Shown one piece after another: positions 9,983 to 14,595 of a stretch of 15,722 nt of DNA. Within the stretch, counting starts at the first letter, position 1. Every line of letters starts with the position of its first letter. This DNA is from a virus (lineage: Duplodnaviria; Heunggongvirae; Uroviricota; Caudoviricetes): the IMG/VR virus record IMGVR_UViG_3300028048_000122. The stretch is one strand, 5' to 3'. The translations under genes were made by a program, and so were the position numbers. The notes below the pieces were generated by a model. That model searched no databases. It saw only the letters and a list, made by a program, of their open reading frames with translations, and had not been told where the DNA came from.

Positions 9983-10900
9983 ATGTCATATTCATTAGCG
10001 GTTGGCAAGCAGCCGACTTTAAGAGCCAATATCGTAGCCGTAGATAATCAGCGTAATCTGGGAATCGCGTTCTTTAGCGCATTCGGTTATGCCTCCAATA
10101 TGGATGGCATCTGCAAGGAACTCAATCTTCGTAGTAAAGATATCTGCTTCGGCAGTCATTACTACAGCACCAATCCCGGCGGGCGCTATGAAACGATCGT
10201 GTCCCGCCTGCATAATTCTGATTATGCGCATTTGGTAGCTTTTAAGAAAGATCGTTGCTACACGGATGAGCGAGCCAACGAAGAGATTATGGAAGGCTAC
10301 GTATTCATTGACTCCGAAGAAAACATTCCCTACTTGGATACGTTCACCGCGTCCATCGAAACCGACGAAGAAATCCCGCAGCAGTTAATCGATGGATTTT
10401 ATGACAAGCTCTATAAGCTGTCGCCACTGCCGGTGATTAAAGAATGGAGTTCGTATCTTATCCATCAGCTGGAAGCGTACAATATGCTCGTGCCACTTAA
10501 GGTTACCAGCAGCGACCCGAATCATAAAATGTACGTTTTCGCTTTCAACGTAAAGGTACGTGACCTGCAGCAGCTCATTACTCAGGGATTGGCCAATGAC
10601 CGTATCGAAATCAGCCATGACCATAACGGCGTATCCGAAACCATGCGCAACGTAGAAGGTTTGGATTCTTACTTGGCCAGCTTCCGTGACGTATTGGCGC
10701 GTCGCATTCAGAATTCCTTCGTGCCGCATTTTATCCCTGGACAGGATGAATATTCTCCTATGCTCGAAGAGTTGGTGGAGTATGAAACCTACAAGGGAAA
10801 ACTGTCGTTATATGACGCACAGAAAGATGTAGTGCAGGCAACCTGCAATGCTTTAGGCAAACAGAAAGCTACATTCATTATAGGAGAAATGGGAGTGGGT
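9983..10900 (+). CDS. SF2 (SNF2/DEAD-like) helicase, exon 1 (306 codons, ends inside Walker A: ...FIIGEMGVG)
   Basis: Ends with the Q-motif-like LYDAQKDVV and ATFIIGEMGVG. The unspliced frame stops two codons later (AGA TAA). Joins in frame to 12397. Confidence 0.9.
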
Positions 10901-10929
10901 AGATAAGAATAGTTTCATGGTAATAGATA

Positions 10930-10953
10930 GACATAGGAGTTGATTCTTATGTT
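10930..10953 (+). promoter_or_regulatory. hairpin sequestering the SD and AUG of the homing endonuclease ORF
   Basis: GACATAGGAG-TTGA-TTCTTATGTT forms a 10-bp stem (3 G-U pairs) containing AGGAG 10935-10939 and ATG 10949-10951. Confidence 0.65.
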
Positions 10954-12079
10954 GATATTACAAAATCTCGAAGAAATCAAAAACGAATATTTAAAAGGTA
11001 AATCCCTCAGACAGCTTGAAAAAGAATATGGCTACGACAGAAAGATAATCTCTCGCGAGCTAAAAAAATACGGAGTTAATATTAAATTCCGCTTTAACCG
11101 GGAGTTTTATAGCAAAGCTCTTGAGCTTCGTAATGAGAAAAAATCTTTGACGGCAATCAGCAGAGAAGTAGGTGTGGACAGACACACTTTGGCAAAATGG
11201 TTTGAAAGCGAAGGCGCTCGTACCATTAAGCATAAAGAACTAAATACTTCTCCTGCTACTCAGAGTGTTCTTGAAAAATATCAAGAAGGAATGTCTGTCA
11301 TAGCGATAGCCAAAGATATTGGCAGGTCTTCCAACTATGTTTGGGAAACATTGAGAAATTATGGTGTTATCGATCAGAATAGAACTTCAAGGAAATATTT
11401 CTTTGATGAATCTGTTTTTGAAGAAATTGATACCGAGAAGAAGGCCTACTGGCTTGGTTTCTTATATGCTGATGGTTATGTGCCAGAAGATTTTAAGGGC
11501 ATAGAAATAGGCCTTAAGGCACAAGACAAAGGGCATCTTGAAAAATTCTTAGATTTTCTCAATATAAATCCTCGACCAGAGATAAGTACGAGAAACGTAA
11601 AAATAAACGGAAAGATTGCGAAAGCATGCCGGATAACTGTATGCAGCAATCGTTTGGCCCATGACTTAGCCAAGCACGGATGTGTTCCTCAAAAATCTCT
11701 TGTCTTGGAATTTCCAAAATGGTTGGATGAAGAACTACTGCCTCATTTCATGAGAGGATATTTTGATGGGGATGGGAGCTTATCTCTTCCAAAGCCACCA
11801 AAAGAAAGTCGCCGCCCTCAATTGCAATTTGGAATTGTGGGGACGGAAGAGTTTATAAATGACTATGAGGGTTATATGGTTGACATCGGTGTGCTTCACC
11901 AATGTGCAAAGCTACGCCCAGCTGGGCAAGCATTTCAGACCCGTCATGGTGGAAACAAACAAGCAAAAAAAGTTTTTGATTTCTTATACAAAGATTCAAG
12001 TGTTTACTTGGATCGAAAATATGAACTATTCACTGCCGTCCTTGGTGGAGACACCAAGAGACTATTAACGGGGAATTAA
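10949..12079 (+). CDS. intron-encoded double-motif LAGLIDADG homing endonuclease with N-terminal HTH repeats
   Basis: KAYWLGFLYADGYV and HFMRGYFDGDGSL are the two LAGLIDADG helices; KYGCVPQKSL-like segment KHGCVPQKSL; YLDRKY near the end; three HTH-like repeats in the first ~140 aa. AGGAG then ATG 10949 (TTG 10940 is an alternative start). Confidence 0.92.
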   Translation: MLILQNLEEIKNEYLKGKSLRQLEKEYGYDRKIISRELKKYGVNIKFRFNREFYSKALELRNEKKSLTAISREVGVDRHTLAKWFESEGARTIKHKELNTSPATQSVLEKYQEGMSVIAIAKDIGRSSNYVWETLRNYGVIDQNRTSRKYFFDESVFEEIDTEKKAYWLGFLYADGYVPEDFKGIEIGLKAQDKGHLEKFLDFLNINPRPEISTRNVKINGKIAKACRITVCSNRLAHDLAKHGCVPQKSLVLEFPKWLDEELLPHFMRGYFDGDGSLSLPKPPKESRRPQLQFGIVGTEEFINDYEGYMVDIGVLHQCAKLRPAGQAFQTRHGGNKQAKKVFDFLYKDSSVYLDRKYELFTAVLGGDTKRLLTGN

Positions 12080-12396
12080 ACTGGGAGGGGTAGCGGCCAG
12101 AAGGCCGCCCCTAATCAGAGTCCGAAGGCGCCGTATAAAACGGCTAAACCATGGTAACATGGCGACGGTAAGTATGCTTACCGGTCAGGCGCAACGCATA
12201 GCGGGTGAAATAATCCCGCCACGAGGCCCCGTCACTTCAAGATATAGGCTTGAACATGTGGATTTAACCCACCACATGCCTAACGTTATAACGAGGGTGA
12301 AAAGATATGCTATGCTGGGCTGGAATTAACCAGCCGATGAAAATGAGGGAAACCTCCAGAGGGCGAGATAAAAAGCTCGCCGTTAATAACAATCAG
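12035..12396 (+). ncRNA. group I ribozyme core (IGS to omega-G)
   Basis: IGS GCC 12035-37. P2 CTTGGTG-GAGA-CACCAAG 12041-58. P3 ACGGGG 12068-73 / CCCCGT 12227-32. P4 CTGG 12081-84 / TCAG 12115-18. P5 GCGGCC-AGAA-GGCCGC 12093-108. P7 A-(C)-GCATA 12194-200 / TATGCT 12306-11, preceded by J8/7 AAGA. P7.1 GCGGG/CCCGC 12201-19. P9 hairpins 12318-35, 12345-56, 12362-81. Confidence 0.88.
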
Positions 12397-14595
12397 AAAA
12401 CTGCTTTATCCATTACTTCAGCGTTTGCGCATAATGCTGATAAGAAGATCATGACTAATATCGTTATGTGCCCCGGTCACTTGGTAGAAAAATGGAAAAA
12501 GGAAATCGAACGCTTGGCGCCGCTTTCCGATGCCGTCATCGTAGACAATTTTGACAAATTGATGGCTCTTAAGCAACAGATTAAATCTAAGGTTCGCAAC
12601 CGTCATCTCTGGCTCGTTATCTCCAAGGAAACGGCCAAGTTCGGCTATAACGAACGTCCCGCAGCAGTATTCTCTAAGGCTGCCGGAGCCAAGGTAGGTC
12701 ATCCCGAAGGCGTATTCTGCTGCCCTGAATGTGGTCAGCCTCTTTATAGCGTACACTATGAAGGTCGTGGCCGTTGGCGTACACAGGTTCGCGATTACTT
12801 TACCTCTGCCGATGCGATGTCTTCCAAAAAAGCTGAAAATGCTTGCTGCATGAATACCGTCATGAAATACGATCCGGAAACGGGTTCAGAAGTAGAGGTA
12901 GCATGTGGCACGAAACTTTGGGAAGCGGCAGGTAAAGCCGGCGATGACAGCAAGTGGGTTAATCTCGGGAAAAGCGTAGGCTGGATGATGCGTGAGCATA
13001 TCGATTCTGAAATCAGACGTATCTCCGGTCTGAATAATCCTTCCAAGGAAGATTCTGCCCGCCTGTTCGTACTGGCTAAAGTTAAGCAGGACGGTATTCC
13101 GAGTTATCCAACGCCGATTAAGTACCCCTTGGGTAAGTACATCCGTAAGAACTTTAAGGGATATATCGACTACGCCTTAGTCGATGAGGTTCATCAATTA
13201 AAGGGGCGCGATTCCCTGCAGGGACAGGCTTTCGCCGACCTGGTATCTACTTCCCGCCATGCTTTATGTTTCACGGGTACGTTCCTTAACGGCTATGCCT
13301 CGGGTATCTTCTACCTCCTGTATCGCCTGTATCCGGGGCTCATGAAGAAGGAAGGCTTTGACTTCGATGGCGGCGGCGAACAAGAATTTGTCCGTCAGTA
13401 CGGCGTATATCGTCAGTCTGCTTGGCATGAATTCCAGAACGGTCAGCAGGGGAACCGTCAGGGGCAGATGAGCTTTAAACAGCTCCCAGGCGTATCTCCC
13501 ATCGTATTCACCAAGTTCCTGCTGGAAAATGCTTCATTTATCAGCCTGGAAGATATCGGAGCAGGTCTGCCGGGTTACGAGGAAATTCCCGTTCCGGTAG
13601 ATATGGACGCCGACCTGGCTGCCGCTTACGAGCGTCTGGAATACAATACGCGCAGCGCTTTCAGCCGTTTCCATGGCGGCATGAAAATCTTGGGACAGGT
13701 AGTGCAGATGCTCTCTATTTATCCCGACAATCCGTATGAACAGCCGCCGATTATTCATCCAGAAACGGGCAATATCGTGGCTACACCGGAAGAACTTTCT
13801 AAGGATGTACTCCGCAATAAGGACCGCGAACTTATCCGTATCGTACGTGATAAGGTAGAACACGGCGAGAAAGTACTGGTGTATTATTCCTGGGCCAATC
13901 GTACTGACCTGGGCAAACGTATCCCGAAAATTCTCAAGGATGAAGGCATCGAAGCGATTACGATGACGGCAAGCGTAAAGAACTCCGACCGCGAGCGTTG
14001 GATTCAGGAGAAAGTAATCGACAAGGACGTAGACGTATTGGTAGTTAATCCGACGCTGGTAGAAACCGGCCTGGATCTCCTGGATTTTACTACTATTATC
14101 TACTACGAAGTGGGTTATAATCTCTATACCATGCGTCAGGCTTCTCGCCGTAGTTGGAGACTTTCCCAGACGCACGACGTACAGGTATATTTCCTGTATT
14201 ATCGTCAGACCGTTCAGGAACAGGCTCTCAGCTTGATGGCCACCAAGCTTCAGGCTGCGATGGCTATTGAAGGCAAGTTCAGCGAAGAAGGATTGAACGC
14301 TATGTCCAATAACGAAGATATCCTGACGCAGATTGCCGCCAGTGTCGCCGACGGCATTAAAGACACAGTGGACGCTCAGGTGTTCTCCAAGAGCCGGGTA
14401 GAGAATACCCAGATCGAACATAAAGAAGATACGCGGCTTATTCTTAAGAGCCGCGACGAACATGTAGCGACTGTCTTGGATTCCTATGAAGAGTCCAAGA
14501 AGAAATCCCGTAAGCGGAAAATGGCTAGTAAGGCACTGGGCCTTAACGAGCGCCGCCTGATGGGTAATCTTTCACGGCTTTTCGCGGCCGTTTGA
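12397..14595 (+). CDS. SF2 (SNF2/DEAD-like) helicase, exon 2 (732 aa; spliced product 1038 aa)
   Basis: Starts KTALSIT (end of Walker A); motif Ia VMCPGHLVEKW, motif II ALVDEVHQLKG, motif III FTGTFLNGY, motif IV KVLVYY, motif V NPTLVETGLDL, motif VI RQASRRSWRLSQ. The 12307 ATG in the ORF track lies inside the intron P7 strand and is probably not a real start. Confidence 0.92.
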   Translation, partial: KTALSITSAFAHNADKKIMTNIVMCPGHLVEKWKKEIERLAPLSDAVIVDNFDKLMALKQQIKSKVRNRHLWLVISKETAKFGYNERPAAVFSKAAGAKVGHPEGVFCCPECGQPLYSVHYEGRGRWRTQVRDYFTSADAMSSKKAENACCMNTVMKYDPETGSEVEVACGTKLWEAAGKAGDDSKWVNLGKSVGWMMREHIDSEIRRISGLNNPSKEDSARLFVLAKVKQDGIPSYPTPIKYPLGKYIRKNFKGYIDYALVDEVHQLKGRDSLQGQAFADLVSTSRHALCFTGTFLNGYASGIFYLLYRLYPGLMKKEGFDFDGGGEQEFVRQYGVYRQSAWHEFQNGQQGNRQGQMSFKQLPGVSPIVFTKFLLENASFISLEDIGAGLPGYEEIPVPVDMDADLAAAYERLEYNTRSAFSRFHGGMKILGQVVQMLSIYPDNPYEQPPIIHPETGNIVATPEELSKDVLRNKDRELIRIVRDKVEHGEKVLVYYSWANRTDLGKRIPKILKDEGIEAITMTASVKNSDRERWIQEKVIDKDVDVLVVNPTLVETGLDLLDFTTIIYYEVGYNLYTMRQASRRSWRLSQTHDVQVYFLYYRQTVQEQALSLMATKLQAAMAIEGKFSEEGLNAMSNNEDILTQIAASVADGIKDTVDAQVFSKSRVENTQIEHKEDTRLILKSRDEHVATVLDSYEESKKKSRKRKMASKALGLNERRLMGNLSRLFAAV

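Follow-up and report, generated by a model that had tools for sequence, protein, structure and literature searches.

The 15,722-nucleotide (nt) stretch of viral DNA analyzed here (the window; IMG/VR record IMGVR_UViG_3300028048_000122, a Caudoviricetes virus) contains, at positions 10901 to 12396, a 1496-nt element that we interpret, with a probability of about 0.85, as a mobile group I intron. It carries a LAGLIDADG endonuclease gene in the loop that caps an extended P1 helix, and the reading frame of this gene runs on into the ribozyme. All coordinates are positions in the window, and all features lie on the plus strand. On sequence evidence, the gene interrupted by the intron encodes a SNF2-like helicase, and the insertion separates the G and K codons of the Walker A motif.

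Exon 1 of the helicase (9983 to 10900) ends with the first half of Walker A, GEMGVG, on GGU, and exon 2 (12397 to 14595) opens with the second half, KTALS. The open reading frame (ORF) that contains exon 1 (9983 to 10906) has the C-terminus IIGEMGVGR and terminates at an in-frame UAA (10904 to 10906), 4 nt into the intron; the frame opening at 12397 (KTALSITSAF at its start) matches profiles of the Helicase_C and SNF2-related domains. Between the helicase halves lie an ORF of 376 amino acids (aa) and then a G+C-rich stretch of 317 nt. When homologues longer than exon 1 were sought, an uninterrupted protein of 1038 aa (P0003) emerged, residues 1-306 of which are 89% identical to exon 1. At the break point, this protein reads ADMGTGK/TAMS (here and below, a slash within a sequence marks a break or splice site), and the lengths of the two halves add up exactly (306 + 732 = 1038 aa). 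Alignment of the DNA encoding P0003 (L114) with the window placed the break after GGT (10898 to 10900) and before AAA (12397), so that the intervening 1496 nt start after a U and end in G12396. The terminal omega-G expected of a group I intron is thus found at G12396/A12397, a junction that is fixed by an intronless allele. The nearest helicase allele belongs to a 153-kb metagenome contig from ENA, with the same neighbors as in the window, namely, DnaE, DUF6094, and NlpC/P60. For annotation purposes, the helicase is to be joined as 9983-10900 plus 12397-14595.

Megablast comparison of the whole window with 50,697 phage records yielded no match. A blastn search of the phage collection with the segment 12020 to 12420 showed that 12294 to 12399 matches, at 81-85% identity, elements located within other genes of phages. 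The gene concerned is gyrA in phiR1-37 (host, Yersinia) and in AR9, PBS1, Goe21, and BpSp (host, Bacillus), terL in a phage of Clostridium perfringens, and a tail gene in a Staphylococcus phage. In the record of AR9 itself, gyrA is joined across the element. A 26-nt motif from the 3' region of the intron is present in more than 107 IMG/VR stretches. We compiled an alignment of 21 family members (A1), bounded by the guide sequence and the 3' splice site, on which the helices were written, with P3 and P7 in separate brackets. Standard pairs occupy 91.6% of the cells of this alignment compared with 33-45% after displacement of the 3' partners by 1-3 columns; 47 of the 67 pairs change on both sides, and none of 500 shuffles attained any of five measures.

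The resulting structure comprises the group I core, that is, the P4-P6 domain and the P3-P8 domain, in which P3 and P7 cross to form the pseudoknot common to all group I introns. Covariation is seen in each of P2, P6, P7.1, P8, P9, and P9.2. The P2 hairpin (12041 to 12058; 7 base pairs [bp], GAGA loop), which lies within the ORF, covaries in all seven pairs and has a fold probability of 0.999. The 5' strand of P3 (ACGGGG, 12068 to 12073), also within the ORF, is 100% paired with the 3' strand (CCCCGU, 12227 to 12232), all six pairs covarying. P4 (12081-84/12115-18) and P5 with P5a (12087-12112), which together occupy 12081 to 12118, have weaker column support, being only 57-75% paired in the alignment, because the register differs between two subfamilies; both are intact in the fold of the window copy. 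P6 with inserted P6a/b hairpins (12122 to 12189) is followed by the 5' strand of P7 (GCAUA, 12196 to 12200), which is 100% paired with the 3' strand (UAUGC, 12306 to 12310, after J8/7 GAAAAGA) and includes one compensatory change of A-U to G-C. The reading of P7 as GCAUAG/CUAUGC was rejected as the wrong register given the variation in the family and two compensatory changes. Between the strands of P7 are the P7.1 hairpin (12201 to 12219; four of five pairs covary) and P8 (CACUU/GGGUG, 12233 to 12299; five of five), which carries an inserted branched extension. The 3' part of the intron (12318 to 12381) consists of P9 (12318-23/12330-35), a GAAA-capped hairpin (12345-56), and P9.2 (12362-67/12376-81), as assigned from the alignment and the fold. 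The presence of P7.1 points to subgroup IA, presumably an IA2-like variant under the usual class definitions; P7.2 is found in AR9 and other members but not in the window copy.

Compared with the compact AR9 intron, the window copy contains extra hairpins in P5 (GCGGCC/GGCCGC, 12093-12108), P6 (three, 12130-12183), and P8 (two or three, 12236-12293), which are common only to L032 (P6) and L102 (P6 and P8). Furthermore, two sets of complementary segments are invariant in all 21 members: CGU(C) at 12037-12040, next to the guide sequence, with (G)AUG at 12336-12339, which follows P9, and CUG at 12315-12317, before P9, with CAG at 12357-12359, after the GAAA hairpin. As both are constant, covariation neither supports nor rejects a tertiary or junction pairing between them.

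The 5' strand of P1 is GGU/AG (10898 to 10902), with the splice site after U10900, and its 3' strand is the internal guide sequence CUGCC (12033 to 12037), which overlaps codons Thr362-Ala363 of the ORF. The U-G wobble typical of group I introns is thereby placed at U10900-G12035, the guide G lying 1135 nt downstream of the 5' splice site. A preliminary description of this DNA had proposed this pairing and this wobble, with P1 closing across ~1.13 kb of coding sequence, and had found a guide sequence only after the main body of the ORF. These proposals are all borne out by the complementarity, the fold, and the alignment of the guide across the family; at 10905-10930, where a local guide might be sought, inspection by eye revealed no credible one, the best candidate being four consecutive G-U pairs. 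The weak P10 of the same account is likewise seen here, with at most one pair (U12034-A12397); in three relatives, about two to three pairs are apparent by eye. What that account lacked is a 12-bp extension of P1, formed by a 5' strand at 10907 to 10919 and a 3' strand at 12020 to 12031 (codons 358-361, YELF). In the duplex fold, 10907-10912 pairs with 12026-12031 and 10914-10919 with 12020-12025, U10913 being bulged; a small internal loop separates P1 from the extension, the register of which is moved by one base in the fold of the whole intron. The 5' strand is the counterpart of the AR9/Goe21 extension UUUCAUUGC/GCAAUGAAA.

In a duplex scan, the splice-site segment together with the extension found its best partner at 12007-12050 (rank 1 of 1445 intron windows), and in the reverse scan, the best partner of the guide segment was 10891-10920 (rank 1 of 2560 upstream windows), where the top duplex is an alternative register considered below. 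The unconstrained ViennaRNA fold of the full 1518 nt includes P1 and its extension, with a pair probability of ~0.84 for P1 from the partition function. GCC at 12035-37 aligns with the GCC directly before P2 in 20 relatives and is invariant in 21 of 21 members. The exon ends in GGU in all 18 introns with a placed 5' splice site, seven of which were placed by GyrA homology or an intronless allele. Among these 18, position +1 pairs with the base before GCC as A-U, U-A, U-G, or G-U, and position +2 as A-U, G-C (the window copy), G-U, or U-A, with three mismatches at +2. The distance from the splice site to the guide G ranges from 10 nt, a plain hairpin, to the 1135 nt of the window copy.

The location of the ORF follows from comparison of relatives with and without it. 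In the ORF-less ones (AR9, BpSp, and several IMG/VR loci), the GCC guide closes a local P1 hairpin of 10-65 nt. AR9 and Goe21 share one gyrA intron, identically positioned, P1 being a 62-nt hairpin in AR9 but spanning 994 nt in Goe21, with a LAGLIDADG ORF that is 28.6% identical to the window ORF. A second pair of this kind, again with intron and site in common, consists of L035 (10 nt) and L020 (747 nt). Because the members of both pairs differ by an insertion in the P1 loop, the ORF is placed in the terminal loop of P1. In all eight ORF-bearing members, the guide sequence and the 3' strand of P1 lie inside the endonuclease coding sequence. The AR9 intron (L002, 2246-2310) keeps approximately the last 25 nt of the Goe21 ORF (L113, 2075-2112), acttagcaatgaaattcttgccgtc, which there form the 3' strand of the P1 extension; this apparent remnant suggests that the ORF was lost by internal deletion, rather than that the AR9 intron was never invaded.

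The ORF itself (10949 to 12079) starts with ATG at 10949, preceded by a Shine-Dalgarno (SD) sequence GGAG (10936-39), and ends with TAA at 12077-79, the C-terminus being TAVLGGDTKRLLTGN. Its product is a predicted LAGLIDADG homing endonuclease with three helix-turn-helix (HTH) modules and a double-motif LAGLIDADG domain. The two motifs appear in the translation as LGFLYADGY and FMRGYFDGDGS, and the profile matches include HTH_38, HTH_23, LAGLIDADG_3 (PF14528; 28.2 bits vs the 22.5 cutoff), and phrog_4645, annotated “endonuclease” (E = 4.8e-61). The last of these covers residues 63-363 of 376 and ends at the guide-sequence codon. A PDB sequence search identified no solved relative of the endonuclease, and a protein-based search of IMG/VR for close copies of the intron or its ORF gave 36% identity at best. 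The SD and AUG (10949-51) are enclosed in a 9-bp hairpin (10930 to 10953; -8.2 kcal/mol, z-score = -2.84), with pair probabilities of 0.95-1.0 in the full-length ensemble. Near this hairpin, the start of the intron shows perfect 8-bp complementarity to the AUG region (10903-10910 with 10943-10950). In the ensemble of the full pre-RNA, this pairing has a probability near zero, with 10907-10912 engaged in the P1 extension and the AUG in the local hairpin; it could form co-transcriptionally, before 12020-12037 exists.

The last codons of the ORF cover the 3' strand of the P1 extension, the guide sequence, J1/2, P2, and the 5' strand of P3, with the stop codon in J3/4, so that ~57 coding nt, beginning at 12020, overlap RNA structure. 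The continuation of the frame through the guide, P2, and the P3 5' strand to the TAA, already noted in the preliminary description, agrees with the open frame and with the covariation of P2 and P3. The further claim that the final codons are dual-coded holds with two qualifications: the RNA structure in the coding sequence starts 13 nt earlier than supposed, at 12020, and the 13-residue tail after Ala363 is not conserved protein sequence. The eight homologous P1-loop endonucleases keep the motif YLDRKY 5-8 residues before the guide sequence; beyond it, they read GCCGU in three frames and stop 2-13 residues after the codon of the guide G. From the guide G to the stop, the window copy has 42 coding nt, the longest in the set, compared with 7-33 in the relatives. 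Thus, because the phrog_4645 match ends at 363 and the relatives use three frames, the overlap looks like read-through rather than double constraint, and the tail VLGGDTKRLLTGN after Ala363 is, judging by these homologues, unconserved read-through. Under the “core creep” hypothesis of Edgell, Chalamcharla, and Belfort, the lengths of such extensions are predicted to vary with the position of the next stop (PMC3073962). The tails in the window and in the relatives match this pattern, and most likely, the frame was extended into the ribozyme in this manner, not because the tail residues matter to the protein. The same LAGLIDADG family is observed in other types of introns: in L119-L125 (about 2133-2205), the tail enters a td-like J8/7-P7 3' strand, GAAGGTATAGTC, and in L118 (2169-2325), the frame remains open for ~150 nt into the ribozyme core.

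Several observations weigh against the structure proposed here and open the way to other readings. The 5-bp core of P1 taken alone is at chance level: within the intron, 31 sites show at least five contiguous pairs with a G opposite U10900, vs 27.6 in shuffled sequences. The invariance of GCC is in part built in, because the members of the alignment were chosen on a match to GCCGT. In the relatives, scans that used energy alone to locate the sequence pairing with the guide on its 5' side proved unspecific where P1 is minimal, the expected site ranking fifth in phiR1-37 and falling outside the top five in L020. That P1 is nevertheless above chance follows from three independent lines, namely, homology, the pairs with and without the ORF, and thermodynamics. 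With so many candidate sites, a different guide could be used, either a local one after the 5' splice site, which would put the ORF in J1/2 or in the loop of P2, or one inside the ORF. One internal candidate, with G12002 as the guide G (11998-12009), can form nine contiguous pairs, four of them G-U, with the last eight exon nucleotides (-8 to -1) and the first of the intron (+1). This G lies in the conserved VYLDRK codons, the nucleotides of which differ in the relatives, as do the exons, and such a cryptic site is not conserved there; the local segment offers nothing better than the four wobbles mentioned above. The full-length fold and ensemble favor 12033-37, which is also the only candidate to align with the invariant guide of the family directly before P2, and we accordingly regard the use of another guide as highly improbable.

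Only slightly less remote is the role of an alternative register in which AGUGGGUAG (10894-10902; exon AGUGGGU plus AG) pairs with CUAUUCACU (12026-12034), either as the main pre-catalytic structure or as a misfolded trap or a regulatory conformer. As an isolated duplex, this register is the best one, at -17.8 kcal/mol vs -16.4 kcal/mol for the register with the guide, and it accounts for ~15% of the ensemble, a further point against the P1 proposed here; in the full-length ensemble, it remains in the minority (0.15 vs 0.84). Moreover, it replaces the U-G wobble at the splice site by a U-A pair (U10900 opposite A12028) and is not conserved in the relatives, whose exons differ, so that we consider it improbable. 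Finally, the silence of Rfam, the last adverse point, might be taken to mean that no splicing occurs and that the helicase is made as two polypeptides, with a free-standing endonuclease gene and a decayed ribozyme between them: the group I model RF00028 (Intron_gpI) has no match in the window at the gathering threshold or at E up to 10. Five loci of related phages (L001-L005), searched with a limit of E = 0.1, likewise gave no match to the model, and this silence is a matter of model sensitivity, a match to RF00028 not being a defining property of the class. A weak match to the Rfam c-di-GMP-I family in the window (E = 1.4) was dismissed as noise. Two separate polypeptides would leave the P-loop in neither half, the break falling inside GxGK/T, and the ATG-initiated frame at 12307 opens within the ribozyme core, at J8/7 and the 3' strand of P7, so that ~90 nt separate its start from the first codon with helicase homology. 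Given also that the last bases of exon 1 and of the intron are U and G, respectively, and that all core helices are intact in the window copy, in accord with the covariation in the family, the absence of splicing is the least credible of these readings.

Returning to the intron with the ORF in the P1 loop, its mode of action can be outlined as follows. The intron RNA would self-splice, and ribosomes translating exon 1 would halt at the UAA 10904-06. P1, in which the splice site GGU/AG pairs with CUGCC 1135 nt downstream and the 12-bp extension adds stability, presumably cannot close before the ORF and the guide sequence have been transcribed. After folding, the sequestration of the SD and the AUG in the 9-bp hairpin at 10930-10953 would keep translation of the endonuclease low, so that splicing dominates. 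A ribosome at codons 358-376 would have to unwind P1, P2, and the 5' strand of P3, which would make translation and splicing of one pre-mRNA mutually exclusive. In line with the prediction of the preliminary description, we infer that the two processes compete in the window intron. That this competition is a selected either/or switch, not an accident, is a tentative and rather doubtful extension: here, a ribosome in the last 20 codons would block P1, P1 together with the SD/AUG hairpin would shut translation off, and each transcript would become either helicase mRNA or a source of endonuclease.

The family is a natural series of members that either lack the ORF or carry it, the read-through tails of the latter, 2-13 residues long, crossing one guide sequence in three frames. 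The series fits the predictions of “core creep” and lends itself to asking whether translation into P1 comes at a cost to splicing. A dedicated covariance model would improve phage annotation, considering that the more than 107 IMG/VR stretches with the 26-nt motif belong to a family to which the Intron_gpI model is blind.

The arrangement is already described in kind and involves no new principle. P1 is among the loops known to host endonuclease ORFs (reviews; PMC3073962). The closest systems are the gyrA introns of AR9, PBS1, Goe21, BpSp, and phiR1-37, which belong to the same ribozyme family and share the GCC guide reading GGU/ and the P2-P9.2 layout. In Goe21 and phiR1-37, this P1 loop holds a homologous LAGLIDADG ORF that likewise reads through the guide sequence, a layout that is not annotated in their sequence records. 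These introns differ from the one in the window in the host gene, gyrA as opposed to the Walker A motif of a SNF2-like helicase; the window copy is further set apart by insertions in P5a, P6a/b, and P8, by the three HTH modules at the N-terminus of its endonuclease, and by the longest read-through. In the tRNA-fMet intron of Synechocystis PCC 6803, the I-Ssp6803I ORF lies in P1, with a 61-nt P1/P2 overlap (PMC3073962, Table 1). The window intron resembles this intron in that the ORF is in P1 and overlaps P1/P2, its own overlap of ~57 nt extending over the P1 extension, P1, P2, and P3, whereas the Synechocystis intron encodes a PD-(D/E)XK enzyme, resides in a cyanobacterial tRNA gene, and belongs to another intron lineage. 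The Physarum polycephalum large-subunit rDNA intron also has its ORF, I-PpoI, in P1, with no core overlap listed (PMC3073962, Table 1); it differs from the window intron in being located in nuclear rDNA and encoding a His-Cys box enzyme. For the T4 td intron with I-TevI, deregulated translation is reported to have lowered splicing and a premature stop to have restored it (PMC3073962, with Gibb and Edgell 2010 as cited there; PMC3984707), which is the competition that the preliminary description predicted for the window intron. Like T4 td, the window element is a phage intron of subgroup IA that splits a protein-coding gene, with the 3' end of the ORF in essential helices and a hairpin that sequesters the ribosome-binding site. 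In T4 td, however, a GIY-YIG ORF occupies the P6 loop, with a 20-nt P6a/P7 overlap, whereas the overlap in the window affects the substrate helix P1 and the guide itself. Against this background, what the window adds is modest: a new host gene and insertion site, the Walker A motif of a helicase, the longest read-through in the set, and membership in a large intron family that is invisible to Rfam.

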